DNA of 28,165 nt from the NCBI GenBank assembly GCA_043228905.1, contig JBHGNT010000402.1, positions 1-28,165 on the forward strand, read 5' to 3'. This DNA comes from Azolla caroliniana (taxonomy: Eukaryota > Plantae > Polypodiophyta). Position numbers and translations under genes: made by a program. The notes beneath the pieces are model-generated. The model searched no databases and was not told the DNA's origin. It worked only from the letters and a program-made list of their open reading frames with translations. Of this stretch, positions 301 through 27,911 are shown in pieces (position 1 is the first letter of the stretch; the number at the start of each line of letters is the position of its first letter).

Positions 301-1675
301 TATGTCAAAGCCATGATTTTGGAATGGAGTCCAGACTTTAATACAATGGAGGAGCATAAAAAACGGGCACTCCAATAGTCATTATCGTATGCTTCCCAAA
401 CCTACCCTTCCAAATCCATCATTTGATCCCAAAGTTGGCACACAATATAGGGATGGTATGTATAGAGAAACCTTCATTTGCCGATAAGGTTGCAGAAATC
501 CCCAAGCTTAAGGTGTTGGTTAGGGACATAAAAGAACAGCCAACAGAGATTTGAGTCCACACAGAGGATTTTGGCCTAAGGATGGTGAAGGTTAGCAATG
601 AAGGCTTGCCGGGCCAGTGCTTTGCATGTAAAGAAATGGGTCACAGGGCCAAACAGTGCCCTTTGTATTGGAAGAAAAGAGAAGGCAAAGGAAATCAGGG
701 CACCAAGATGCCCGATAACCCAATTTCGGTGATGGGAGGGCAGAGGATCCTCGCTCATGTTGGGAAGCAAGTCACTGGGGAAGAAGGATGGGTAACGCCC
801 AGGAAAGTGGCTAGGTCTAGCATTCACAATCAAAAGGGTCCTCCTACAAGTGCCAGTTCCAGTTCGAACAAATTTGATATCTTGTCACAAAGGGAAGAGG
901 AACCCCAAGAGGGTGAGATAATTTTGACGACTCCGATTGATTTGCTTCCAAGAGTCGAGACCCTAGAAACACTTGTAGAGCCGTCTGAAAGTCGGGGCAA
1001 GAGATTTTCATCAAACCGAAGAACGGTTAAGGCGTGGATTAGGAAAGGGAAGGACAAGGAAAGTCATGTGAACATGGGTATTAATGAAGTGCAGAAAATG
1101 ATTGCCCAGATTGAGGCTGGAAATCCCTCAATTGTGGGAGTTGACTTTGTTATGATGAAAGATTGGAAGATGCAAGGTATGGAGGTACTGAAGGTCAGAG
1201 TGAACATTGGTACTCCCAAGGAAAGAGTTCATGGTTGGAATAGAGCACAAATGGTCCTCATCAATAGTGACTCTAGTAGACTAGAGATCGGTTGCTCCTT
1301 CGACTTGGAGCCTGATTTGGAAGATGGAAGGGGAGAAGAATCCTCTTTGAAGATGTTCTGTAATAGGGGAACAGTGTGTATGCGATACCTTATACCTGAA
1401 AACGAAGTTAAGGGGTTGCATGCACAATGGAAGAGCTCCCTGATATACATGGGGAGATTCTTGAACTTGGTCCAAATGTTCCCTTGGTTTGCATATGGAG
1501 GGTGCACGATCTTATGCTAAATCCTGGTCAGTTCCACTTCCAGTGTGGTGAATTACCCACTGATCAAAAAAGGGAAATAAGAATGGAGTGGGAAAACATA
1601 TGGAGTATGATGACGACATATTTGTCGAGCAAGGGTGAATCTCCCTTGGCCTTTCTTTTGAACCCAAGTCAATGA
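301..1675 (+). pseudogene. LINE ORF1 remnant (DUF4283-like region plus zinc knuckle)
   Basis: ILEWSPDFN and CFPNLPF-like segments (310-540); NEGLPGQ-CFACKEMGHRAKQC (CX2CX4HX4C, 618-659) in ORF 582..1520; probable frameshifted tail in ORF 1427..1675. Confidence 0.8.
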
Positions 1676-3639
1676 GACTTTTCTCTTGGAATGTGCAAGG
1701 ACTTGGTGGGTCCCATCATCTGCTTGAGAAGCGAATTTTTAGGAAGGAATTTGAAGTTGTTAGCTTATGTAGGAAGATTGATATTTTGCTCTTACAAGAG
1801 CAATACCTTGGCTGAGAAAGGATAGAATTGTTCAACGACTCGTTGCCAGGGGATTGGCACACATGGTGGGCTCTAGCTCACGGCGTACTAGAGAGGAGAG
1901 GTGGAGTCTGTATTTCGGTGAGAAAGTCACCGAATATCGCCATTTTGGACCATGGCATATTGATAGAAGGAAGGGTCATGTTCTGTTACTTGTAATGGAG
2001 GAATGTGAAATTTGGGGTCTTGAATGTCTATGCACCAAATAGTAGCAGTGAGAGGACCTCTTTTTGGAGCGAGCTGGCAAACAAAATTCCCTCTTATGAC
2101 AACTGGATAGTAGCAGAAGATTTCAACATGACTGAGAGTGTCTGGGGGCTCACTCGAACTTGTTACAGGGAGAGGAGCTTAGAGCATGGGGTTTCCTATT
2201 TAATATGCTTGGAATCAAAGATTCTTGGCATTCTAGTATGGTGGTTGAGGAGAACTCCTTGTTGTTTTCACGATTTAGTTGGAAGGAGAGTGAAAGATGT
2301 CATTCTAGATTGGACCACATCTATGTGAGCCCCAAATTTGAGGATTGGAGCGCTTGCACATCCATTCTAATTGGCTTTACTTACTCTGATCACCTTCCAG
2401 TTTCCTTGACTCTCGATCCTATTCATAAGAAGAAGAGTGAGTGCAATTTGAGGATTCCTCCGAAGATTTTTGGTATCTAGAAGGTTAAGGAAGAAGTGAT
2501 TAACATCTGGTCAGCATCTCCATCATTCGACGACCCGTAACATGTATTAGAGGAAATGATTATTAATTCTTCTCATGCTCTTGAGAAAGCGGCTAGAGAG
2601 GAGATGGTAAGGTGTCGTTCCCAACTACAACGCTTGAGGAAGGTAGTCACCTCAACTCAAAAGCTTACGCAAGTGGACCCACGCTGTTCTTGGGCAAAAG
2701 ATAGACTGCAGGAAGCCACAAGGGTGTTGTAGGAGATTGGGCAGCAAAGGGAGCAATTCCTCTTCAGAAAGTCGGCAGCACAGTGGGTTGTCAAGGGAGA
2801 TAAAGTTAAGAGTGAGTTTTTTCTCACCAAGGCTCCAAAACTAAAGGGAAATCCTATTCTAAGTCTTAAGAGAGAGGATGATTCGGTGACAACTGACCAA
2901 GATGAAATCTTGCAAATGGCAACGAAGTATTATAGAGACCTTTTAGCTCCAATGTTGATAGAAGCCCCATTGATTCACTTGATGCATCATGTAGTTGCAT
3001 GCTTGAAGACCAAGATTGGAGAGATAGCCAAATCACAGTTGTCAAAGACCATAGAGAAGGAAGAGATAGGATAGGATTCATAGCAGGGCTTGCCTTGGAG
3101 TTGACGGCCTTCCCAACGCCTTCTTCGTGGAATTTTGGGAGCATATTTTTCCTAGTTTGGAAGCTGGATTCTAGGAAATGTGGAGAACGAGAAGGATTGC
3201 GAGCAGCTTCAATGAAGGATTGATATACATGATTCCTAAATCAGAGAAGGTGTCGCACGAGATTAGACAATGGAGTCCCGTCACCATTTTAAATCTCATT
3301 TATAAAAAAATTGCTAACATACTAGTGCAGAGAGTCAAGCCCTTTCTAGGAGATATCATCCAAACCAATCAAACCGGTTTCATGGAGCATCGATCTATTA
3401 TGGACAATGTGATATTGTTTTGGGAGGTTGTTGCAACAGCAAGGGAGACCAAGCAAAACTTAGCTTATCTGATGTTTGACTTCGAGAAAGCCTATGATTG
3501 AGTGCAATGGTATTTCCTTGAAGAAGTGATGAAGGTGATTGAGCTACCGTGGGAATGGAGGTGTGCTGCTCAAGCCCTATATAAGAATGGCTCAAGTAAG
3601 GCGTTGATTGCAGGGAGGAAAGGAGCTAGAATCTCTCTT
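1672..3639 (+). pseudogene. LINE ORF2 remnant (AP endonuclease plus N-terminal reverse transcriptase)
   Basis: MRLFSWNVQGLG at 1672, IDILLLQE, NVYAPN, WIVAEDFN, SRLDHIY, SDHLPV; RT segments IPK...WSPVTILN..YKKIA, QTGF..RSI.DN, DFEKAYD. Confidence 0.93.
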
Positions 3640-7839: not shown

Positions 7840-8102
7840 GTTTGAAATCAAATCTTCAAAATTGCCAGACAAGACATGGACCCATTGTTATGGAAACCAA
7901 TATAATAGAATAAGAGCAAGAACATGTGTTTGAAATGAAATCTTCAAAATTGCCGGACAAGACATGGACCCATTGTTATGGAAACCAATATAATAGAATA
8001 AGAGCAAGAACATGTGTTTGAAATGAAATCTTCAAAATTGCCGAACAAGACATGGACCCATTGTTATGGAAACCAATATAATAGAATAAGAGCAAGAACA
8101 TG
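7840..8102. repeat. Tandem repeat, 3 x 88 bp, nearly identical
   Basis: Units start at 7840, 7928 and 8016 (GTTTGAAATSAAATCTTCAAAATTGCC...GAGCAAGAACATG). Confidence 0.97.
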
Positions 8103-8856
8103 GTATAGTTAGATAAAGTAAATATTTTTGCTATTGTGGAAGCAAAGACCACTTTAACAAGAACAACTGCCACGAGGTGAAGTTTGTTACTATAAAACCT
8201 TTCGAGGACTATTAAAACAAGTGCACTAGAACAAGAACATGACCATGTGCCAAATTCAATTGTCCACCGAATGCATAAAAGAGCACACCTAAGTTAGTAT
8301 CATAATAATCCAAATATAAAACATTTGAACATCTATTCGAGGTCATATCCAACCATCATCAAATTTTCAATTGATAATTTATTTCCCATTTTATTACTTG
8401 CATCTTATAGCAAGATTAAAATGCAATATCCAAAAGCCTCCACGATGTTTTATTTGAATTTCTTTATTTTTTTTCTCTTGGGTAATTTTCAAAATCCTTT
8501 TAAGTGTAACAAAGGGTTGTTAATTTGAGTAATGCGCATCTTGGTAGAGTAAGCTCCTCAAGATGAAGAGAATGTCAACGATGTTAGAAAAAAAAATAGA
8601 AAAAAGAAGAAGTTGTCGATTGAGTTTTGTAGTTGAACCATTGATCATGATAATGTCTGGCTTTTGATCATGGGGATATTTTTGAGTTGCACTCTATTAA
8701 GTGTCATACATGAACTTCTCTTACAAGGATTTTGGTCTCATTCTTGCTAGTTAATGTCCACATGAAGAATGTCAAGTTGGGAAAGTTCTTTTCTCGAGTT
8801 TGTTTGCAAGGAGGGGTACATATTGGGCCCTTTGACTAAATCGGTTCATTCACAAT

Positions 8857-10943: not shown

Positions 10944-13094
10944 CTACGGTGACTCCGACTTTGGCTTCAAATGGCCGGGTGTAGTCCTATTGTCCCCCCT
11001 CAAGCTCGGTTGGTCAATGGTCGAAAGATCCCGGATTGTCATGAACTGCCACAGCTTGTCGACTCCCAAGGCCTTGGTGAAGATGTTGGCCATCAGTAGG
11101 TTTGTGTTAATGTATTGTAGGTCGACATCCCCGGCCAGAGCATGCTCTCGGATGAAGTGATAGTGCACTTCGATGTGCTTAGTTCGAGCATGGAAGATTG
11201 GGTTCCGAGCGAGGTGAATACTGCTCATGTTGTCGCAGTAGAGGAGAATTGGATCCTTTATGGGAACACCCAGATCCTTCAAGATTCTCTTAAGCCCAAC
11301 GGCTTCGCGTATAGCTACGGGCGTGCCCCTGTATTCGGCTTCGGTGCTCGATAGTGCGACTGTCGGTTGTTTCTTACTACTCCACGATATGGCACCACTG
11401 CCGAGAGAAAAGACAAATCCGAATGACGATCATCGGTTGCCTCTGTAACTGGCCTAGTCGGCATCGGTATAACCTTCGAGTCATACTGGTGTGGTCGATT
11501 TGTAAAGGATGCCGAAATCCATGGGTGTTCCACTCACGTACCTTAGCACTCGCTTAGCACAGTCGAGATGGATGTCTCGCGGAGTTTGCATAAATTGGCT
11601 AAGGAGGCCAACCAGGTAACTCAGGTCGGGTCATGTAATTGTGAGGTAGATGAGGCTTCCGACTAGTTGACGATAATGTGTCGGCTCACACTCTCTAGTG
11701 CCTGAGTCGGCATCTAGCTTTAGATTTCGATCGAGAGGAATAGTGACGGGCTTACACCGTGTCATCCCAAACTTGTAAAGAAGATTGAGGGTATAATGCT
11801 TTTGAGAGAGCATGATGTCGTCTAGAGTCCAAATTACTTCTATTCTTAGAAAGTCATGGAGCTCCTTCATATCGGTCATTTCGAATCAGTTGGAGAGGAG
11901 CTTCTTGATGTGCTCAATATCCGCTAAATGCTCTCCTCCTATGACCAAATCATCCACATAAATGATGATAAATACCTGTCCTCTGGAGTCTCTCTGGATG
12001 AACAGAGAGTTGTCAGACTTGGACATGTTGAAGCCAATTTGATGAAGATATTGCATTATCTTCAAATGTCATGCTCTCGGTGCCTGCTTCAGACCGTAGA
12101 GAGGCTTTTTGAGTCGGCAGACATCAATCAAATGCGTAGTCGACACGAATTCGGGTGGTTGCACCATGTACACCTCTTTGTCTAGCTCGCCTTGCAGAAA
12201 GGCATTCTTTACGTCCATTTGGTGGAGGTGCCACCCTTTTGCTGTTGCCAACGCAATCACGGTTTGAATTATAGTCAACTTTGCCACCGGGGCAAAGGTC
12301 TCTTCATAGTCGACATTGTGCGTCTGCGCATGCCCCTTTGCCACAAGCTGAGCCTTGTACCGATGGACAATGCCGTTGGCGTTGTGCTTTATCTTGAAGA
12401 TCCACCTGCACCTGCATCCAATTGCCTTTTGGTGGTTTGAAGAATGGACGAGATCACATGTCTCGTTCTTCGAGAGTGCTTACATCTCCTCATCCATCGC
12501 TTCGACCCATCTAGGGTCTTTCACGGCTTCCGAATAGTTTTCCGGTTCTCAGACTGTCGACACCTTCATCATCAATGCATAATGATATGCCATGTAGTCG
12601 TTGTAGCCAAATCGGCTGACTACGTTCTTTTCTCAGGTGGATCGACGTGGTTCTCCTGGTGTCCTCATGATGGGCACATCCAATCTACCAAACTCACTGT
12701 CGGATAAGTGAGTCGATTAATTTCCAACTGAGTTTTCGTACTCAAGCATTTTGGCCTTTCGTTTGTCCTATTTCGAACTCGACCGTGACGTGCTTTGGTC
12801 ACTTAGATGCCCTTGCAGTCCACTCAACCTGGTTGAGATTGGACTTTCCTCTGATGTAAACCTCAGTCGATCATCCTCCTCGGCATCTGTGTCAAACTCG
12901 GTTTCGATTGTGTCGGATGGGGCTGATTTGACTATATACCAGGATGATGACTCGTCGAATACATCCCTACTCACTTGTACCTTCTTGGTGGATAGGTTGA
13001 AGCACTTATAACCTTTTTGGTCGAGTGAGTACCCTATGAGTATACATTTTTGTGACTTGAGATCGAGCTTCTACCGCAGGTTTTCGGGGATATG
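10944..13094 (-). pseudogene. Copia A pol remnant (integrase C-term, RT, RNase H)
   Basis: KCILIGYS..QKGYKCF..SRDVFDE; DYEETFAPVAK, LHQMDVKNAFLQG, LYGLKQAPRA; YRQLVGSLIYL; YCDNMSSI..ARNPIFHARTKHIEVHYHFIRE. Confidence 0.95.
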
Positions 13095-13224
13095 TGTGGA
13101 AAGTTGGTAGGTGTGTGCGTATGCGGAAGTGTATGAGAACCTGTTTGCTGACTCGGAAAACAACACTGAAAGGGAGGAAGGCAGGGAGTTACACAGAAAC
13201 GAGCTTTAATGGAAAGGTTTATTA

Positions 13225-13259
<35 letters not shown>

Positions 13260-13428
13260 AGACTTGATATACAATATCTAGTCAAGAAGATCTTTCTTTA
13301 CAACGTTTGGTTATTGCTTATATACTAAGCCCTAACTATGTGGACGAGGTTACACTAGGATACAAAGTGGAGGGAATCGACCTTTTATGCCAACTAAATT
13401 CCCCGTAAAAGGACTAATATTTCCAACA
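13095..13428 (-). repeat. 3' LTR of Copia B
   Basis: 13095-13368 aligns to 27912-28165 with about 15 substitutions and a CT-run length difference; termini TGTGGAAA...TTTCCAACA; right edge inferred from the terminal inverted repeat only. Confidence 0.85.
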
Positions 13429-13561
13429 TGTACATGTGTTTGGGGTTGTCTCCCCCATAAAATTAGATTACAACACTAATCTAGATTTATGTTACAAGTC
13501 GGTTGGCAAATAGTTGAGTCGGCATAAGTGAGGTCCGTATCGAGCGTAGCATGGCTCATTA

Positions 13562-15497
13562 TCATGATTGATTCGGTTGACTCTTACCTTCTGCTCCTCG
13601 TTCAACTTTCTTCTGCTCGGTTGCTTGTCGTAGTCCCATCTTTTTCCTTACTGCTCTGAAGCATTGATCTGGGAGTGGCTTTGTCAGGAAATCAGCGATG
13701 TTCACCTTAGAGTTGATATTCCAGACTTCGAACATCTTCTCCGTTGTGAGCTCCCGGATGTGATGATACCGCACCTCAATATGCTTTGTCTTTGTGTGAT
13801 AGACGGGATTATTGATGAGGTGTATTGCGCTCTATGAGTCGCAATAGATGGTTGGCGATAGACGGTCGGTTTGGCTTGTATCCGAGAAGTCAACAAACAG
13901 TCGGTGCAACCAGATGGCTTCCTTTGCTGCTTTCGATGCCGCTATGTACTCGACTTCTATGGTAGACAACGTCGTGCACTCTTGAAGTTTAGACCTCCAT
14001 GATATTGCACCACCAACATAGGTGAAGATGTAGCCTGATGTCGATTTCCAATTATCTATATTTCCAGCATAGTCGGAATCGGTGTAGCCTTCAACTTCGG
14101 TTTAGGTTGTCAAACTGAAAGTCAGTTGTGTATCTTCAGTTCCTCTCAGGTACCTGAAGATGTGCTTGACGGCCTCCCAATGCTTCCGTCTTGGGTTTGA
14201 CATGTACCGGCTGACCACTCCTACGGCATAGGCTAGGTCGGGTCGGGTCACCACCATTGCGTACATGATACTTCCTACGGCCGATGCGTAAGGAATCTTT
14301 CCATTAAGCTCTCTCTCCTTTTCCGTTGAAGGAGAGTCTCTGTTCGATAGTCAAATCGACGTCGGAAGCGGTGTTGGTGCTGGCTTTGCATTCTCCATAT
14401 TGAAGCGCTTCAACACCTTTCGGATATAGTCGGACTGGGAGAGTCAAAGAGTCTTGGTCATCCGATTTTGCTCGATCCTCATGCCTCGTATGTGACAGGC
14501 TTGTCCGAGTTCCTTCATCGCGAACTTGTCGTGAAGGCTCCGCTTCAGCTTTTTGATCTTTGCTTGATTGCTTCCTGCAATCAGCATATCGTCGACGTAT
14601 AGGATCAGATAAATCCTAGACTCATCCGCCAGTTGCCAAATATACATGCATGGGTTGGAGTCAGATCTATAGTATCCAAGTTCCCTGATGTAGGAATCAA
14701 ACTTCTGGTACCACATCCTCGACACTTGTTTCAAGCCATATAGGATTTTCTTTAATCGACATACGAGATGACTGTCCTCCCCCGTCGTCGTGAAACCGGC
14801 CAGTTGAGACATATATATGTCTTCTTCCAGATCTCCATGTAGAAATGTTGTCTTTACATCCAGGTGCTCTAGCTCTAGGTCGACCCCGTATTCTTGTTTG
14901 AATCCCTTCGCAACAAGCCGAGCTTTGTACTTGGGGTTATTTTTAGTCGGATACATGTTTGTATCGGAAAACCCATTTGCAGGGTAGCGGCTTCCTTCCA
15001 GCTGGTAGTTCAACCAGCTCCCATGTCTGATTTTTATGACTCGAGTCCATTTCAGATTTCATGGCCTGTTGCCATGTGTCGGCGTCCCTTGCGGCCATAA
15101 CTTCTTCATAAGTATTTGGTTCGCCTACATCGGCGTAGTTGACGTAGTCGACGCCCGGTTGATAGAACTCTGTCGGCCTTCGAGGTCGTCCAGATCCCCT
15201 AGGTGCCGAGGTAAGTGGTTCAGATTCTTCAATCAACTCTGTAGGTCGATCAATACTTGTTGAACCATTTGTGTCAGGAGTCTTGTTGGGTGACCCCCCC
15301 CAAGTTGGGATTTCAGTGGTGTCACTTTGTCCTCCCCTATGAATTTCGTCGACTCGGTTTGGTTTCCTACTCGCATCTTGTTGACTTTGCCTGCTTCCAC
15401 TCTGGTTGAATAGGCTCTGTCATTGATGGCTTTGTCTTTGAGTTCGACTAGTGGACTTCCCACCGATTCGGAGTCAACAGAGCAGGTATGTTGTCGG
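13562..15497 (-). pseudogene. Copia B pol remnant (linker, RT, RNase H)
   Basis: WQQAMKSEMDS..KNQTWELVELP.G.K...CKWVF; KARLVAKGF; LDVKTTFLHG; LYVDDMLIAG; GYTDSDYAG..STSGY; TKHIEVRYHHIRE. Confidence 0.95.
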
Positions 15498-15916: not shown

Positions 15917-15930
15917 ATATCCCCCCCTTA
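15917..15930 (-). other. Polypurine tract of Gypsy C
   Basis: Minus strand TAAGGGGGGGATAT immediately before the 3' LTR. Confidence 0.88.
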
Positions 15931-17047: not shown

Positions 17048-18469
17048 TGTCGCGAAAATACGACAAGGATACGTGAACGTTGAGGCAAGACCCCGGGGCC
17101 TTTGACTAGAGGATATCAAATTCGTGTATTTATGTACTAAGAATTAACCGAAATGAGAAAGATTAACAAATTTCATTAACAAGTAGAAAGAAAGATTACA
17201 ATTGATCCCGAGACTGGGATTACAAAAGTTTGCTAATGGAGATGGCTAGAGTAATAGATTAGAAGAAATGAAATATGGATTTAATTAGAATATTAGGGTT
17301 TTTAGCTTTAATTCGAAAATTAGGGTTTTTGAGTTATATGGCTTTGATTAGGACATTAGGGTTTATGACTTCCGTAAGGAAATTTAGGGTTCTTGGCTTC
17401 GATAAGATAAGAGAGCTCCGAAAGAAAAGGAAAAAAATTAAGATAATATGGAGAGTCTAAGTATAGGAAAAAAATGGAATTTTATATGGGGTTCTTCCTT
17501 GATCATCTGCATGTTCACTTTTTGTTGTCTAGCCTCTACTTTTAGTTGCTTAGCTTTTTCTTTTAGTTGCATGCGACCGTCCACATGACCTTTACTTTTT
17601 GCATGCACTCCAACTTTAGTTGCTTGCGTCCACATGGCCTTTACTTTAGTTCTCTTCACTTTACTTTAGTTTGTTGCATGATCCAATCTTCCATCCGTCC
17701 GCATCCAACCTCGTTCGGTAGCCGGTTCCGCCCGATCGCTGAATCCCTCGCCGGCCGGTTCCGGTTAGCTTGCCGGTTCTAGTTCCGATTTTGCTTGCCG
17801 GCCGGTTCCGGTTTTGCTTGCCGGCCAGTTCTGGTTCTGGTTTGCTTGCCAACCGGTTCCGATTCCGGTTTGCTTGCCGGTTCCAGTTCCGATTTTGCTT
17901 GTCGACCGGTTCCGATTTTGCTTGTCGACCGGTTCCGGTTTTGCTTGCCGGCCGGTTCTGGTTCTGGTTTGCTTGCCAGCCGGTTCCGGTTTCCAGATTT
18001 GCTTACCGACCGATTTCCGGATTTGCTTGTTGGCCGGTTCCGGTTCTGGTTTGCTTGCCGATTCCAGTTCCGGAATCCAATTTTGCTTACTGACCGGTTT
18101 TCGATTTGAATGCTGGTTCCAGTTCCGGTTTTGCTTACTGGCCGGTTTCTGGTTTTTTGGGAACTTGGCCACCATCATCCATCAAGACAAAGTGGCCAAA
18201 GTGCTCTCAGCACAAATGAAAAATGAGGGAGCTCAAGGTGCTTATATAGCCAGGGCCTTAAGTTTCCTATCTATGTGGGATAGTTCTAATTGCCCTATCT
18301 TCTCAAACTTTATTTTCACATAACTTGATATGTATTTCTCCATTTTGTATATAGTAAAATACATTTTGAAGCTCTTGAGTATATCCATTTTTCTATAGTA
18401 AGCTACTAATCTAATCTATAATAATTATTTCATTATTTTTTTACATAGTGTGTGAAGATTCACACAACA
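17048..18469 (-). mobile_element. Insert D: solo-LTR-like element, 1422 bp
   Basis: TGTCGCG...CACAACA ends; CCGT duplicated at 17044-17047 and 18470-18473; removal restores host [15 protein letters not shown]; minus-strand CTATATAAG near 18241-18249 suggests orientation. Confidence 0.8.
17750..18158. repeat. GC-rich minisatellite, about 16 units of about 22-32 bp (GCCGGCCGGTTCCGGTTTTGCTT-like)
   Basis: Recurrent TTTGCTT anchors with variable numbers of CCGGTT hexamers. Confidence 0.92.
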
Positions 18470-19430: not shown

Positions 19431-19693
19431 TCTTCTTCTAACTGACTAACGACATCAAATTTGTTCGATAGATTTGGGCTATTAGTACTATTAGGACTAT
19501 CAGATATTCCTACTGAAATAGACTCGGGTTTAGTACAATTAGAACTAGCAACTATTTGGTTCACCTGTCTTCTTGGCCTATGGGGACAATTCATTGCAAT
19601 ATGCCCTGGTCCACCGTAATAAAGACATAGTCGATTTGCTTGGCGTCACTACTTTTCTTCTTCCAGTAATGGTCCACGACGACGTGTAGTGTC
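19418..19693 (-). pseudogene. Gypsy C gag C-terminus with decayed zinc knuckle
   Basis: RRRGPL...NRLCLYYGGPGHIAMNCP; stop at 19418-19420. Confidence 0.88.
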
Positions 19694-20036
19694 TGTTTAT
19701 GGGTGGGGGATGGAGCCAAGATCGGCTCCACCCCCCTCCCAAGGGGGTTCGAGTGTGAGAGGAGAGAGGGAGAGATGAGATGCACAGAGAGAACGAATGA
19801 GAGAGAGAGAGAGAGAGAGAATCGAGACAGACACAATTTAGAGTAACTTCGATATCATTTTTTCATGCCCCATGAGTGAGGATTTATATAATAGAAGATC
19901 TTTACAAAAAGCCGAATGGATGTAGGTACACACCTACTTACCTCACCTAACACTCAGACATTCACATTTCATATTACACCTCACACACCACCTTCCACAT
20001 TACACCTAACCCTCCCGTACACCTATACGGGTAACA
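19694..20036 (-). repeat. LTR-like left terminus of E (343 bp), orientation tentative
   Basis: TGTT...AACA ends; minus-strand TATATAAA at 19883-19890; GA microsatellite; abutted by a PBS-like motif; no second copy in window. Confidence 0.55.
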
Positions 20037-20038
20037 CC

Positions 20039-20055
20039 TGGCACGCTCGTGGGAC
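20039..20055 (+). other. tRNA-Arg PBS-like motif TGGCACGCTCGTGGGAC
   Basis: 2 nt after AACA; inverted near-copy at 24020-24036. Confidence 0.7.
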
Positions 20056-22180
20056 AGTGCATTGCATGGCGTACCCACAAGCCCATGGCAAAAACTCGTT
20101 GACCAGAAACTCCATCGGTCTTCTCTCGACGGTCGAAAATCCCTCGACCGGAACATTTCTCTACGATCGATAACTTCGATCGGAGCTAGCATGACACGAA
20201 CCTTCTCATTCAGCCAGCATAATGCACGATTGGATCACACACCAATCAGCTTGTCCATTGTGATAAAGTCGTTCAGGGTTTAAAAATGATTCTGGGTGTA
20301 AGTGTATGTATACATATATTTTTTCTACATTGGTGTGAGTGGTGATAGGTTTTTGTTCCATCAATTTTTCGAAATTCTATCTCGTACCCCTCAGTTGTTG
20401 AAATTCTAGTAGCTACCCTTATATTTTTGAAATTTATTTACTATCCTTTGGTTTTCGAAATTTTTCGTTGTGCCCTCGTCTGAAATTTGTGGTGATGCCT
20501 TTCCCTTTCTCTTCGTCTTTTTAGGTTTCGGTTTCTTCTGTGCCCTTTTCTTTCTTTCTTCTTTCTCTTCTCCTTCTCTATGTCTTCTATCTCTGTTGCG
20601 ACAGAAACGATGCTTTGTTCTCTTCTTCTTCCTTAGTTTTCTTGGTTCAGTCATCTTCTGCTCCATCTGCAGTCTCAATCGAATGTCTGTATGTCTCTCT
20701 GTGTAGGTCCTTCCTTCTTCGCCTTCTTCTTTCTGCTGCTCCATCTTCGCTTTCCCTCCCTTCTTCTCTTGTTGTGTGTTGTTGTTCTTCTTTGTTTCTT
20801 TTGTCTTTGTGTTTTCATCCGCTTGTAGCAACCACTGCATCTTCCATGACTCCAACTCATTCTTCCTCTTCTTGTAGTTCGTTTGCTTTTGTTTTTTTAT
20901 TTGTTTTCCCCTTCATTTTGGCGGTTGGCTGCTCCGATTTTTTTGTCTATTGGCCAGCTTGTCAGCTGTCCATGGCCTATCTGATGACTTCCTTTGTTCG
21001 ACGGCCGTCGTCGTCTGTCCGGCCATCGCATTTCTCGGTAGTAGCCATTCGCGGCCGTCGCTTGGCTCTTGGCCGTCCTTGCAGCCGTGCTAGTGCTTGG
21101 CCAACTATCCCTCGACCGCTCCTATTCTTATTTGGCTGCATCTCAGCTTCTCAGCCGTCTCTCTAGGCCTATTCTCGATGCTCGGTCGTCGCTTTCGACC
21201 ATATATTGGTTGACGCTCGGCCGTGGCTTGGTCGACTCTTGGCTTCTTGGTCACTTTCTCACCTGTGGTTTGTTCGACCGACTCTCTATTCGGTTGTGTC
21301 TTTCTAGTCGGACTTTGGCCATCTCGGCTAGTCGGTCAATTGCCGAACCATCTGCATGGCTAGCTAGTTGCTGCCATCCCACTGCTGATTCACTGCGTTG
21401 CTCGTCTTTATCCACCAACCGACTCTCTGTCCATTTGGCTCTTGTTGTTGATGGAAATAAACAAAGAATGTGTTTTCTCTTCAATATTGAACCTTATACA
21501 CCTTAGGTTTTGTTTCTTCTTCCCTTCCGGTATATGGTTAATGATACTTGATACAAATAGAGCAATGTGGCCTATTTCATTATTAGGACATATGACCCCG
21601 ATCCTTATCTAGAAAATTTGTAAGGAGTAAGTAAACCCATAATAATGCTAACTCTATCATCTCTCTTACTCTTTTACGTATATATATACTCTGCTACAAT
21701 GGTTAAATACTTGATCTCACTATCCGGTTCCACCACAAACCCTTCATGAGAATCAAAGAAGACCATTAATGGAGCACACGCACTCTGTCGATACATCATT
21801 ATACATCGATCATATGTGCTTTATCTTCCTTGTTCATGACCTGCATTCCTCTTTTCTCTAAACTTGAATCATTGGTAGATCTTGGCACTAAACCAGATAT
21901 ACAAGTGACTTCACCACTTTATTCCAGAATAAGTTAGCTATGGCTACTATTGCCATTTCCTTCAAACTCTGCTATGGACCTCTTGATGGAGTGATTTAGA
22001 AGGTGTTTGATTGTTAGTTTCATGTAATTTATTAATTTCTGAATCTGCTTCTTCCTCCTCCTGATTACAAGCAATAGAGTGGCACAAACACACACAACAT
22101 AAAGATGAAGACCTAGAGACACATAGGGGAACAAAGAGGGAAAGAGAGATTTCTATTCAAGGGTGGTAGGCCGTAGGCAA

Positions 22181-22235
22181 AGCCTAGGCGAGGTCATTTC
22201 ATAGATATAGGAGCTTTTCGCTAGAAAGGTTAACA
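22181..22235 (+). repeat. Fragmentary 5' copy of the right-hand LTR of E
   Basis: 22181-22217 matches 24227-24263 (34/37); ends GGTTAACA like 24521-24528. Confidence 0.75.
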
Positions 22236-22240
22236 CAATT

Positions 22241-22253
22241 TGGCACGCCTGGT
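22241..22253 (+). other. Primer-binding site, tRNA-Arg type (TGGCACGCCTGGT)
   Basis: 5 nt after the GGTTAACA LTR end and upstream of gag. Confidence 0.75.
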
Positions 22254-22530
22254 TACAGTTGTGAGATCACAGCGAACTACGTTGAAGACAACCTTTACCC
22301 GCCATTACGACGCCCAATCGCACCAAGCGGTCTCGGCCATTTGGCCGACGCCCTGAGCCAGTCGAAGGCACTTCTGACTCGGCGGTCACGGACCAGTCCT
22401 TCCCAGAAACATCGGAGGCTCACCGGTTGCAATCCTCGCCACACCAACCTCTCCATCAAGCCCTCCAGAGGTCAACCACCCTAACCCTAACCCTTTTCCG
22501 GCTTTACCGGAAGACTCCGAATTCGATACC

Positions 22531-23230
22531 ATGTCGTATCCTTACCCACAATACACCAACAGCCCCGATGCGGAGTCGCATGTTCGTGCCTTCGTGTCCA
22601 CCTGGCAAACCAACCACTCAACCCAGGGACTCTCGCCTGTCGAAATCGAGGCCTCAAAAATTGCTGAGTTTATGCTATCCCTCGATGGACCAGCTGCGCA
22701 ATGGTATTCTGGCCTCGACACAGGGGAGTTTGTCGCCTTCCACGATGTTCGCACACAGTTCCTAGAATTGTTCCATCGCGAGGTGCCCAAACGAGAATTG
22801 CTCCGACAGTTCTTTTCCATGCGACAAGAACCGCACGAGACGGTCGCACAGTTCACGATCCGGTTTCGGTATGTCTCTGCACAGCACATTCCGGGCGCAT
22901 TCCTGTCCAGCCTACGGGAGCCTCTACGGACGACTCTTGTACTTACTAATTTTGACAACCAAATGATCGAGCAAGTCATAGTGCGCGTCCTCGCCCTCGA
23001 TCGGACTCAACAAAGCATGGCTTTCTCTATGAGTTCACTGCAAAGCGCCCTTCCCCAGGAGGACAATCGCTTCCGCCACGCCCTCCAATGCACAGTTTGT
23101 TCGGGATCGGGCCATCTGGCCCTCGAATGTCCTCACCGACCACAGTGTCCGATCCGCCAGTCCCGATCCCACACGGTTGAACACTGCGAATACAATATGC
23201 TCAACCACACAACGACGGCTCCGGTTTGGA
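22531..23230 (+). pseudogene. Gypsy gag remnant of E with two zinc knuckles
   Basis: F.LSLDG.AAQWY, MRQEPHETVAQF..RF; CTVCSGSGHLALEC and decayed CPIRQSRSHTVEHC. Confidence 0.88.
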
Positions 23231-23923
23231 CCCACAATACTACCAACACCAGATCCACCTTCTCCCGGACGCTCGGCTGGTTCAGCAAAGACGATATCGG
23301 ATGAACCCCAATTATGTGGCTAAGGTCAAGGAAGAAATAGACAAGCTCCTCCGAGTCGGGTTCATACGACCGGTAAAACGCGCCACATGGTTAAGCCCAA
23401 TCGTAGTCGTCCCCAAGAAAAACGGGAAAATCCGAGTCTGTGTGGACTATCTCGCAAGCTTAATGCTGCAACGGTCATGGATGGATTCCCTCTCCCGTTC
23501 ACGGATAGTGTTCTCGACATGGTGGCAGGTCACGAATGCTACAACTTTCTAGACGGGTTCAGTGGGTACAACCAAATCAGAATGCACCCGGATGATCAAG
23601 AGAAAACAACATTTGTCACGGAATGGGGTGTTTTCGTGGCAGAAGTCATGATGTTCGGTTTAAAAATAGCGTTAGCCACGTTCAAGCGCATCATCACCGA
23701 AATTTTAAACGAGTATATCCCGACGTTCATGCAAGTCTTCCTCGACAACTTCGCCGTATATGGTCAGCGACTGGAACACATGACCCAGTTACGTCTCTGT
23801 CTTGATCGATGTCGCCAGGCTCAGTTAAGTTTAAGCCCGGTAAAATGCGCATTCTTGGTCACAAGCAGCAACCTACTCGGACACATCGTCAGTCAAGAAG
23901 GTATCGCCATGGACCCGGAATAA
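23226..23923 (+). pseudogene. Gypsy RT remnant of E (non-chromovirus-like); protease, RNase H and integrase absent
   Basis: WLSPIVVVPKKNGKIRVCVDY, FLDGFSGYNQI, MMFGLK.A.ATF.R, VFLDNF, LLGHIVSQEGI. Confidence 0.93.
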
Positions 23924-24019
23924 AACCAACCTCTAAGCCCCGTAGGAACGGACAATTTTTGTAATCCGTGTGGTTTTGTTAAATCCATGGTGAATCGTGG
24001 GTCTGACGGACAAAGTCCT

Positions 24020-24036
24020 GTCCCACGGGCGTGCCA
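24020..24036 (+). other. tRNA-3'-end-like (anti-PBS) motif GTCCCACGGGCGTGCCA at the expected PPT position
   Basis: Ends in CCA, followed by GG and the TGTTG LTR start; largely complementary to the PBS at 22241. Confidence 0.7.
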
Positions 24037-24038
24037 GG

Positions 24039-24528
24039 TGTTGTCCATAGGCCAAAAATAGAAATTAGTTAAATGTAATACGCTGGAAGTAAGGCGAGTA
24101 GGTAAGGGAGAGTTAGGTAAAAAGCTGAGTTTTGAGCCTCACAGTTAGCTGACCGCTCGGTGTTGTATGAAGGAAAAGAAGTATATAAACCGAGGTCTGC
24201 GTACCTCGGTAGGGGGAGATATCCAGAGCCTAGGCAAGGTCGTTTCATAGATATAGGAACTTTGTAAGGCTACCGGCTGTGGGCCGTGTTTTTTTGTAAA
24301 CCTCGCTAACTATTGCAGTAAAACATATCTATTAACTCTTGTTGTTTTCATCTGTGTGTCGTCGTTTCTAAGGTCTCAACTACGTATACGACCTGGGCTC
24401 TATTCCGGGTATGATCTCCGTGTTCTTCCCTTAACAACACCCCTGTGCACAAGTCTTCACGATTACACTTCCCTGGATACCGATAGCTTGTAGGCATATC
24501 GAAGGTGTTTCCCGCAGAACGGTTAACA
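24039..24528 (+). repeat. Right (3') LTR of E, 490 bp
   Basis: TGTT...AACA ends; TATATAAA at 24182-24189; partial copy precedes the PBS and gag; left edge inferred. Confidence 0.7.
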
Positions 24529-25408
24529 GTGTCAATTTCCATCGGAGTTGGAGTATTCACTGGAGACGCATTATATGACTCCCTTGGAAAAGGTTTTGCT
24601 ACCAGTGAGGCATAGGTGGGCTCTAATCTTGCCCTTGGCATCTGGAACTCATGTTTCGAACGTCGTTCGAAAAGACGGTTGTCGCATCTCACCGCGTGAC
24701 TGATTGCTTCTATCAATGACTTTGGTTCTTCGAGGAAGGTCAACAATAAATCCTTGACATTGTTACGTAGACCATAACGAAATTGCTCCATTAGTTCTTG
24801 GTCATCCTAGGGGATATCGGAGGCGAGTAGGCGGAAATCTACAACGTATGCGGGGGTTGGACGATCACCTTGACGTAATCATCGGATTTTATTGATTGTT
24901 GTCCTTATGTTGTTAGTATCTCCAAAACAAGCTTTAAACTCACTTAAAAACTCTTCAAAATGTTTAGTAAAGGAGATTCCTTTTCTAACAACGGAGTGAA
25001 CCATGCCAAAGCTAAGCCACTTAACAACGTGCCTGCTAAACCCACTCGTGATGCATCGATGGGATATTAGGAAGGATGCATTTGAATGACTAATCGTACA
25101 TGATTAAGGAATCCTCTAAACTGCGATCGCGTTCCATTGAATTTCATGGGAAGACCGATCTTGGGTTCTTTAAGAATCCCTTGCGTACTGGGTCCTTGTT
25201 GTTGGATCGCTACTATGGTTGATTCGAGTTGTTGCACGCGTAACACTAGTTCCCCATGTTGTTGTTGTGTCTGTTGCTTCTCTAAGGAGATTTGTTGAAG
25301 CTCCCCCAACAATCGTTGATTTTCTTGTTCCAATGCAAGAAAATTCTCTTTCAAGCATTGCAACTTCAAGAAAATGGATTGATATTCTTGAGCGCTATCA
25401 GTAGCCAT
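24529..25408 (-). pseudogene. Gypsy C gag N-terminal and capsid region
   Basis: ATG at 25408; Q/E-rich coiled-coil-like start; EPKIGLPMKFNG.RSQFRGFL; QFRYGLRNNVKD; PTPMEID. Confidence 0.92.
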
Positions 25409-25534
25409 AGTATGAGAGAAAAGAGGAATAAGAGATTAGTATGAAGGGAGCGAGAAGTAAGAAGATAAGGAAGAGAAGGAAAGAGACCAAAATTGGTTCA
25501 AACAGTCGGAAACAGTACTAAGACAACAAAGTAC

Positions 25535-25957
25535 TATCAGGAACAGTACTAAGACAGATAAGGAATTAGTACTAAAAGATGAGGATTAGTATTAAGGGAG
25601 GTGTAGAACTCTCGAGAGAGGAAAGAGTGAGTGAATGAGTGAGTGACAGAGAGAGAGAGAATGATGATAACAAAAGATATATATTATGTTAAGAGAATAT
25701 ACAATAGTAGCTAGGAGGCTTAAGACTGACGTTGAATCGATTTGGTTCGAAATAATGCCTTGTGCCTCCTTTTATAATGTTCTCAAGAGTACTCCTGAAG
25801 TTTCTAGAATGTTCCAAAGAAATTTGGAATATGCATCAATTTTCTATAGTACCTAAATGAAAATAATATCCTTGGTATTACAACATATAGTCTAATTGTC
25901 AAGAGCTCGACTCATGTAATATAAGGTCATGGGTTCGAGTCTTGCCATATCATGACA
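25535..25957 (-). repeat. 5' LTR of Gypsy C (423 bp)
   Basis: Aligns with 15498-15916; TATCA (mutated TG end)...TGACA; minus-strand TATAAAA at 25770-25776. Confidence 0.93.
25888..25942 (+). promoter_or_regulatory. Second copy of tRNA-like A/B boxes in the 5' LTR
   Basis: TAGTCTAATTG at 25888 and GGTTCGAGTCT at 25932. Confidence 0.6.
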
Positions 25958-27806
25958 ATCGGCTTGTTCGAGTTCGACTGTTTGTCGAATCTTTGATTCA
26001 ACTTGGTGGGTCGGTTTTTCTATGACGTCTCAGTCGTCTTTGAAAGATACCTTTTTCCCTACTATTTTCTTATGGTTCCGTTGAGAGAAGATAGAGTCTT
26101 CATTGAAGACTACATCACTGCTCCGGATCAATTTTCGGTTCTTAGGGTCCCATAGCCTGTAGCCGAATTCCCCATCGGTTCCATAACCGAGAAATATGCA
26201 TTTCGTTGCATGGGCTGCCAATTTTGTCATTTTATCCCTGGGGATGAACACGTAGGCTTCACATTCGAATATACGGAGCCTATCATAGGTCGGTTTTTTT
26301 CCTGACCATAGTGCCTGTGGCACTTCAAGCCTAATTGCTCTTGACGGCGCCAGATTTATCAGGTATACTTCCGTTTGCAATGCTTCTGCCCAGAATTCCA
26401 GCTTCAGTTCGGCTTGTTGAAGCATTGCTGTCACCCTCTCCTAGATCGTTCTGTTGATCCGTTCTGCCACTCCATTTTGCATGGGTGTGTAGGGAACGGT
26501 CTTTTGAAGTCAGATCCCTTTGTTGGACACGTCTTGTTTGAAGGCTCTGGAGGTGTATTCGCCTCCATTGTCGGATCAGAGTGTCTTCACTCTATGTCCC
26601 GACCGGTTCTTACTTCAGATATCCACCGAGTGAAGACCTCGAGTGCTTCGTCTTTGGACCTGATCGAGTAGGCCCAGACCTTCTGTGTACAGCCATCTAC
26701 AAAGGTGATGAAGTACTAGGAGCCTCCTAGTGATCGCTCTAGCAGGGGTCCACATATATCTACGTGCACGAGCTCTAGGGGTTGTCGTACCATCTCGTAG
26801 TGGAGAGTGTGCAGACTTCGGGTCTGTTTCCCATATCGACAATGCTCGCAAAAGTCCGTGTTCGCTTAGGATTTTGGGATGTAGCCTACTGCCATCAGCC
26901 GATCAAGTCTGGCTTGAGACATATGGCTGAGTGACTCGCCATGCGAGAGGTTTGGGTCGGTCTTTTCGGCTACGTTCACGGACCCCTTCTGAATTGATCG
27001 TCATTAGCGGCTATAGGTTGTTGTACTTGTGCCCGCCTCTTATCTTCAGGTTTGCTCGAGTGATCATCCAGACCGACTCAATTAGAGTCGTTTTGTCCCC
27101 ATCTTCGGCTAGCATGCCGATGGAGACCAGACTCCTTTTCAGGTTAGGTACATGCCAAACTCGGTGCAGGGTTATTGTGTTGCCATTTGGTAATCGGATG
27201 GGAACCTCTCCGGTCCCTGCAATTCTGCACTCCTGCCCGTTGCCTAGATGGACTGTGCCATTGGTGTCGGTTGAATAGTCCGAAAACCATTCAATGTTGG
27301 GGGTCACATGGAATGTGGCACCAGAATCCAGTAGCCACGTGTGTGCATCCTGTGCACTGTAGAGGACTTCTCCGATCACTGAATCCTCTAATGAGAGAAC
27401 TTCTCTGGATCGGGAGTCGGCAACGTTGATTTGGTTCCCGACTGGAGAGCAGTCCGATTTGGGTCGTCCTCGATTCCTTGAAAAGTTGTTTGATCAAAAT
27501 TAGTTTTGAAGATGAGGACTTCTTCTCGTACACATGTTGTAACTTTTCCCATAGTGATAACGTTGTCGTCTCTTTTTCCATGCTGAAGTAGACATTTTCG
27601 GCCAGATGCATTTGGATGGTGGAACGTGCAATTTCGTCCATCGATTTCCACGCTTCGGTTGTCATCGAAGCAGGTTTTTCACTGTGTCGAATAGCTTTGA
27701 CTTGTCTTTTGATGATCAGAACATCCTGCATCATCTCCTTCCATAGTGCAAATTTTTTGCCATCGAACTTTCTGATTTCAACTCTAGTTCCGAATGTTGA
27801 AGCCAT
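25958..27806 (-). pseudogene. Copia B gag, protease and integrase remnant
   Basis: KFDGKKFALWK; WLLDSGATFHVT; FCEHCRYGKQ; SDNGGEY; FWAEALQT..YLIN; KCIFLGYG..GYRLWDP..SSDVVFNE. Confidence 0.95.
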
Positions 27807-27896
27807 ATTCTTCTATGAAAGGTGAGATTTTTTTACTGACCTCGTCTTTTTCTTTTGAGCTTCTTCTGTTTTCTGTTGCCGCTGAACAACAAGGTC

Positions 27897-27909
27897 GGTT
27901 CTGATACCA
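27897..27909 (-). other. Primer-binding site, initiator tRNA-Met type (TGGTATCAGAACC)
   Basis: 2 nt inside the 5' LTR; one mismatch to the usual TGGTATCAGAGCC. Confidence 0.9.
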
Positions 27910-27911
27910 TT

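Follow-up and report, generated by a model that had tools for sequence, protein, structure and literature searches.

The window, a stretch of 28,165 nucleotides from a contig of Azolla caroliniana, is a nest of retrotransposons. A unit made of two LTR families (19694-24528) sits inside the gag of a chromodomain element and is bounded by one shared 5-bp target site duplication (TSD), with its left copy at 19689-19693 and its right copy at 24529-24533; an uninterrupted relative (L322) spans the site. The left part of the unit reads on the minus strand and comprises the 3' LTR of family 2, which is non-coding in the copies seen (19694-20036), its spacer and tRNA-Arg(UCU) mimic with the three-part build described below (20037-20078), and an internal region that ends just after its primer binding site (PBS) position, where it joins family 1 head to head (20079-22177). 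Family 1 reads on the plus strand and begins with remnants of its 5' LTR, namely, a 40-nt internal piece and the U5 end (22178-22235), followed by a 5-nt spacer and a short minus-strand PBS for tRNA-Arg(UCU) (22236-22253). Its gag and RT (22378-23923) are decayed and carry two internal deletions, the second of which joins RT to the 3' end of the element, and the unit closes with a 490-bp 3' LTR (24039-24528) that is delimited by LTR pairs with TSDs.

The orientation of the left part, tentatively assigned in the initial annotation of this DNA, proved right: it is the 3' LTR of another family, read on the minus strand, and in 8 of the 20 stretches examined the internal sequence of this family 2 lies between two LTRs of the same sense. 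The inverted pair of motifs is not part of the design but an accident of the fusion of two motif-bearing families inserted as one unit, as follows from the single TSD, the uninterrupted relative, and the junction at 22177. Since both outer ends are U5 ends, 19689-24533 is likely an aberrant cDNA chimera that integrated in one step. Truncated 3' LTRs fused tail to tail, both within and between families, were also seen at L041, L044, L045, L046, and L215. A further locus (L043; G000:C2:8822000-8831999) is 98 to 99% identical to the flanks in the window and is without window positions 22181-27218; the window contig looks like another haplotype of this locus. The remainder of the window includes what we take to be decayed LINE-like open reading frames (555-3501) and pieces of copia elements (10944-15419 and 26030-27910, presumably with a Met-type PBS at 27901), as well as three 88-nt tandem copies (7840-8103) and a degenerate tandem array of 23/29 nt (17747-18156).

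Attention had been drawn to 25 nt at 24018-24042, described as a mimic of a tRNA 3' end directly before the right LTR. These letters read as claimed, and their reverse complement indeed matches 20033-20057 at 24 of 25 positions. The identity of the mimic stands, but its extent had to be revised, as the true motif is longer (23997-24036) and constitutes a 40-nt copy of the 3' half of the host tRNA-Arg(UCU) plus CCA that is interrupted by a 13-nt hairpin insert. Comparison with the host tRNA-Arg(TCT) genes confirmed that they end as initially stated, with the CCA not encoded, and that the motif is short of one C relative to the tRNA. The window itself has no tRNA gene according to ARAGORN. Genes for tRNA-Arg(UCU), or repeats that resemble them, occur in clusters at G000:C11:693000-703500, C22:1428000-1505000, and C4:19549000-19569000. 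In tRNA numbering, the motif runs on the plus strand from the 5' strand of the T arm and the T loop up to A58 (23997-24006), through the insert between positions 58 and 59 (24007-24019), to a 17-nt copy of bases 59 to 76 that includes CCA and lacks the one C (24020-24036). Read on minus-strand DNA, this last segment is a PBS. A 2-nt spacer (24037-24038) separates it from the LTR, and among the at least five families that carry the motif the spacer is family specific, being GG, TG, AG (98 of 99), TATG, or TATTG.

The insert forms a hairpin of 4 to 6 bp with compensatory changes across families, and four compensated versions of its two middle pairs were found. In an alignment of 32 rows, drawn from 70 family representatives with two more included, all six pairs of the inner hairpin change on both sides, 97% of the cells are paired, and the pairing exceeds that of 500 of 500 shuffles and of all slid controls, counts that are not to be read as probabilities because the rows were chosen by their 3' segment and are related to each other. 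None of the five pairs of the outer stem is compensated, and its 3' side is invariant in these rows, which were selected by that very side. At the closing pair of the hairpin, G-T is more frequent than A-C (14 against 4), a weak hint that the hairpin folds as sense RNA.

The placement of the motif relative to the LTR is defined by complete elements. Three family 1 LTR pairs (95 to 96% identical, 490 bp, TGTT...AACA) have the TSDs CAACA/CAACA, CACCA/CACCA, and TGCAT/TGAAT, two being exact and the third one base off, and they uphold the LTR start at 24039. In all three, the motif and GG precede the 3' LTR with gag-pol on the same strand, while the 5' LTR is followed by CAATT and the short PBS; the pairs were found by a search with motif and LTR in which 40 of 677 candidates were scored. 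Likewise, the motif, 2 to 5 nt, and then U3 follow each other in all five family 3 pairs for which both starts were found, and pol of the family lies upstream on the strand of the motif in 16 of 20 stretches. Hence, in LTR pairs with TSDs, the mimic is located at the exact position of a plus-strand primer, on the gag-pol strand, and the polypurine tract (PPT) is absent. Within 60 nt of the LTR, the longest purine run is at most 8 in 152 of 153 contexts, all chosen by the motif. The nearest purine run of 10 in family 1 lies 128 nt upstream of the 3' LTR, and one branch of family 3 has a purine-rich stretch at -54 to -37; such upstream runs are not conserved, and the idea that one of them is a displaced PPT was discarded for that reason. 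That a PPT is visible where present is illustrated by the chromodomain element that hosts the unit, which has an ordinary one directly before its LTR in the same window (15920-15929, minus strand). The proposal that a tRNA-Arg(UCU) 3'-end mimic stands in place of the PPT is therefore borne out by intact LTR pairs, and the case that would have spoken against it, intact copies with a normal PPT, was encountered in none of the intact copies checked.

The motif is widespread. The 523-Mb genome that was searched (G000) contains 1,316 exact copies of the 17-mer followed by NN and TG and 2,143 exact copies of the 15-nt core, as opposed to none of the reversed-pattern control in either case, so that chance can be dismissed. 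It is conserved across unrelated LTR families, the flanks of which are unrelated. Outside this genome, it was found in 112 metagenome stretches with LTRs that are mostly 70 to 90% like those of this genome, the listed stretches bearing accessions of one series, and contigs from two further coded organisms share alignable sequence only at the motif and the beginning of the LTR. Another coded organism, F, gave no coverage, which need not mean that it lacks the motif. Viral contigs yielded neither the motif nor a relative of the RT. Eleven matches in contigs of prokaryotic genomes, none with hairpin context, were taken as chance. The RT-RNase H sequences of motif-bearing elements form one supported clade beside liverwort and fern sequences, apart from nine flowering-plant rows without a lineage label, and the named proteins closest to the RT, with about 50% identity, come from liverworts and ferns. 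Two copies of family 3 combine the motif with 100% identical LTRs and exact TSDs, and in one of the two, gag-pol is one uninterrupted frame of 1952 aa that includes RNase H and integrase. The lineage is successful and recently active, and the motif is lineage-wide.

By their direct LTRs, TG...CA ends, and 5-bp TSD, these are Ty3/gypsy LTR retrotransposons, with a PBS after the 5' LTR that matches host tRNA-Arg(UCU) or tRNA-Arg(UCG) over 13 nt; the PPT usual for Ty3/gypsy directly before the 3' LTR is what they lack. Pfam on one copy (L148) gave the order gag, RT, RNase H, integrase. At E<=0.001, there was neither a chromodomain after the integrase nor a second RNase H family, and RNase H and the integrase zinc finger are about 110 aa apart. 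Downstream of the integrase, the same copy has a forward open reading frame of 979 aa without a Pfam match (L148:6474-9413), which stops about 10 nt short of the mimic. Measured against the features tabulated in PMC6317226, the elements are non-chromovirus Ty3/gypsy that lack defining features of Tat, Phygy, and Selgy and depart from Athila in PBS type. They share with the REXdb groups Athila, Tat/Ogre/Retand, Phygy, and Selgy the GAG-PROT-RT-RH-INT order, the lack of a chromodomain, and an extra 3' open reading frame, with Ogre/TatIII the tRNA-Arg PBS, and with Athila the 5-bp TSD (PMC6317226). Unlike Tat (TatI-III, Ogre, Retand), they have no aRH; unlike Athila (Asp, Asn, or Ala), Phygy (Trp), and Selgy (Ala), they have an Arg PBS; and in contrast to the 4-bp TSD and missing extra frame given for Phygy and Selgy, they have a 5-bp TSD and the 979-aa 3' frame (PMC6317226).

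PPT priming of the plus strand is the rule in Ty3, retroviruses, and plant LTR elements, as described in PMC5371799 and PMC7197481, and PMC6317226 places a PPT before the 3' LTR in "most" elements, its accessible lineage descriptions mentioning no substitute. The elements described here resemble canonical PPT elements in the LTR-PBS-gag-pol-LTR layout, the tRNA-primed minus strand, the RNase H and integrase domains, the short spacer between primer and LTR, and the 5-bp TSD. They differ in that a tRNA-sense sequence ending in CCA replaces the purine tract and in that the likely primer is a host RNA acting in trans. The bipartite PBS of Ty1 and Ty3 is similar in that two segments bind the acceptor end and T arm of the tRNA with a loop between them, but there it is the RNA that carries the complementary segments, and they serve to start the minus strand (PMC5371799), whereas those considered here are complementary to the tRNA only on minus-strand DNA. 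Helenus TRIMs also contain tRNA-derived sequence inside an LTR element, yet as a promoter within the LTR with PBS and PPT retained, and the author finds no priming role for it (PMC10886601). Elements of S. osmophilus were considered as a parallel and set aside, as they have ordinary PPTs (PMC10085805). No description of tRNA-primed plus strands was found in the full-text literature searched, most subscription papers and Repbase notes lying outside it, and the replacement of a PPT by a tRNA mimic is apparently undescribed. HIV-1 has a tRNA-Lys3-like sequence in U3-R near its 3' end that aids minus-strand transfer; its PPT is retained. What we describe is a known kind of element with a priming step that is likely new.

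We consider it probable that the plus strand is primed by host tRNA-Arg(UCU) annealed to the minus-strand DNA, in which case each of the two strands would start from a tRNA; this use of the motif had been suggested initially and is the likely one, supported by the genomic fossils discussed below. In such a scheme, RNase H would remove the element RNA, and the minus strand would then expose a two-part site that pairs with tRNA bases 59 to 76 and approximately 47 to 58, the 13-nt hairpin being looped out at 58/59. RT would extend the CCA end of the tRNA through the spacer into U3, after which RNase H would remove the tRNA and integrase would trim the spacer. Where removal fails, the minus strand may copy the primer for 18 nt to A58, or further, and thereby generate fossils. 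It speaks against this scheme that RNase H acts on a tRNA paired with DNA and might cleave it before RT has extended it.

Modeling agrees with the choice of isoacceptor. At four 3' sites, the modeled duplex of minus strand and tRNA-UCU, in which the insert is looped out, reached -49 to -53 kcal/mol, compared to -28 to -35 kcal/mol for tRNA-UCG and about -26 kcal/mol for shuffles, with RNA parameters as a proxy for the RNA-DNA hybrid, and UCU was favored over UCG at all four. Pairing with the tRNA is weakened by the insert and the missing C and, in two families, by mismatches as well. The PBS of family 3 matches tRNA-Arg(UCG) at 13 bases and that of family 4 is also of the tRNA-Arg(UCG) type, yet the 3' mimic of both is still UCU; the UCG isoacceptor was found with a looser pattern after a first, stricter pattern had given none. 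Only slightly less probable to us than plus-strand priming by tRNA-Arg(UCU) as such is the fuller combination in which this clade dropped the PPT and has both strands primed by host tRNAs, some families using Arg-UCG for the minus and Arg-UCU for the plus strand, on a two-part minus-strand site with a hairpin at A58.

Since the tRNA genes here do not encode CCA, tRNA-exact sequence with CCA beside an LTR points to a copied primer or template. True tRNA-Arg(UCU) sequence plus CCA is joined to a U3 start by the family's own 3' spacer at eight independent loci (L094-96, counted as one event, L097, L100, L144, L145, L304, L313, and L317), with one base of the spacer changed in L304. All 55 exact tRNA 18-mers in the genome were fetched; by BLAST, 27 join an antisense U5 end and 9 join a U3 start (six events), while 19 were undecided, most of them with 5'-type spacers. 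Two more U3 events came from looser matches with the T arm, 35 of 47 of which were examined. Fossils of tRNA-UCG are found at U5 in all five events and at U3 in none, and, judged from sequence, the same type of fossil marks the known minus-strand priming site. Three of the eight U3 fossils (L097, L313, and L317) precede a 5' LTR with PBS, and in L097 and L317 the tRNA-UCU sequence lies ahead of a 5' LTR whose PBS is UCG. L313 contains, twice, the series U5, an 11-nt spacer, T, exactly 18 nt of tRNA, AG, and U3, located upstream of PBS and gag-pol; three positions set it apart from the motif of its family. It resembles a two-LTR junction, and two cDNA ends joined while the plus-strand primer was still attached would have this appearance.

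The fossils are rare aberrant products, and they show that the tRNA pairs at the 3' site in vivo, if only now and then. The same letters as in the U3 fossils would result if the minus strand switched onto the tRNA within the last 7 to 11 shared bases, but the three at 5' LTRs are harder to explain in that way. The L094-96 event may be secondary, as 130 nt of its flank are common to a neighboring 3' LTR. Eight "U3-first" assignments that rested only on L215, an inverted fusion, were dropped, as were assignments from far-downstream matches (L132-134, L138, L147, and L384). At L379, PBS-side sequence passes without a break into a tRNA-Arg(UCG) fossil in inverted orientation with a U5 end, a junction that resembles a fold-back.

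Among the alternatives, the element's own RNA mimic might survive RNase H and act as primer in cis, taking the role of the PPT in the shape of a tRNA, with host tRNA binding there only by chance. Its place and spacing are those of a PPT, the covarying hairpin has a slight G-U bias in the sense strand, and the fixed missing C implies that the site is inherited from element RNA. Against this, all eight U3 fossils are of the tRNA type and none of the element type: no element-type fossil with the tRNA T loop was found, and one match without the usual preceding bases was an ordinary mutated copy, in a test that misses about 44% of random junctions and covers G59-T60 families only. Moreover, no tRNA-like fold is kept, as the outer stem is uncompensated and there is no conserved 5' strand of the acceptor, and identity to one host isoacceptor across families would be left unexplained. 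We regard priming in cis as unlikely.

A slightly smaller chance is given to the tRNA binding the minus-strand site for RT stalling, RNase H cleavage, or strand transfer, with the plus strand starting from a nearby non-conserved fragment. That the site can capture strand transfers is suggested by several inverted products (L098, L099, L104, L116, L308, and L312), in which a tRNA-exact 18-mer and a U5 end are fused to the hairpin context of the 3' site, and Ty3 has bipartite tRNA contacts far from its PBS (PMC5371799). The extra site of Ty3 is, however, complementary to the tRNA on the RNA, whereas the motif has the same sense as the tRNA. Furthermore, the CCA lies at a fixed, family-specific distance from U3 that mirrors the minus-strand junction, the fossils retain the spacer, and no other conserved primer candidate was seen.

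Pairing of the 3' motif with the element's own PBS, for circularization of the RNA or self-priming, had been proposed on the basis of complementarity that does exist in the window (9 perfect bases, about 12 with G-U pairs) and that was modeled at -39 kcal/mol over 48 to 50 nt for family 1. As families 3 and 4 are primed by tRNA-Arg(UCG) and still retain the UCU mimic, such pairing is not the general use of the motif; in family 3, it was modeled at only -22 kcal/mol with scattered pairs. The tRNA fossils at U5 ends reflect ordinary tRNA priming of the minus strand and, together with the UCG families, do not match self-priming of the Tf1/Tcn1 type, making this explanation very improbable. Least credible of all is that the motifs are ordinary PBSs of inward-facing 5' LTRs, to whose reversed LTR-PBS junction they are identical in form, or a neutral leftover beside a hidden PPT, because LTR pairs, TSDs, and gag-pol polarity put the motif at the 3' LTR and it is conserved amid unrelated flanks; the intact copies refute this reading.

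If plus-strand priming by tRNA-Arg(UCU) is true, a successful, recently active lineage manages without a PPT, and a host tRNA on a DNA template is enough for RT to begin the plus strand. Such elements would provide a natural system for asking why the PPT is otherwise retained, by what means RNase H first leaves a primer intact and later removes it, and what integrase does with overhangs of 2 to 11 nt. Annotation tools that require a PPT, or that orient elements by the best PBS match, are predicted to misread them, as the longer tRNA match is at the 3' end on the other strand. At the 5' end, the spacers between LTR and PBS range from 2 to 11 nt by family (e.g., window 22236-22240 and L355), and since they exceed the usual 2 nt they would entail long integrase overhangs. 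Finally, some 5' PBSs have been converted to the full 18-nt complement of the tRNA (L089, L090, L093, L115, and L310), the outcome to be expected from a plus strand that copies the primer as far as A58.
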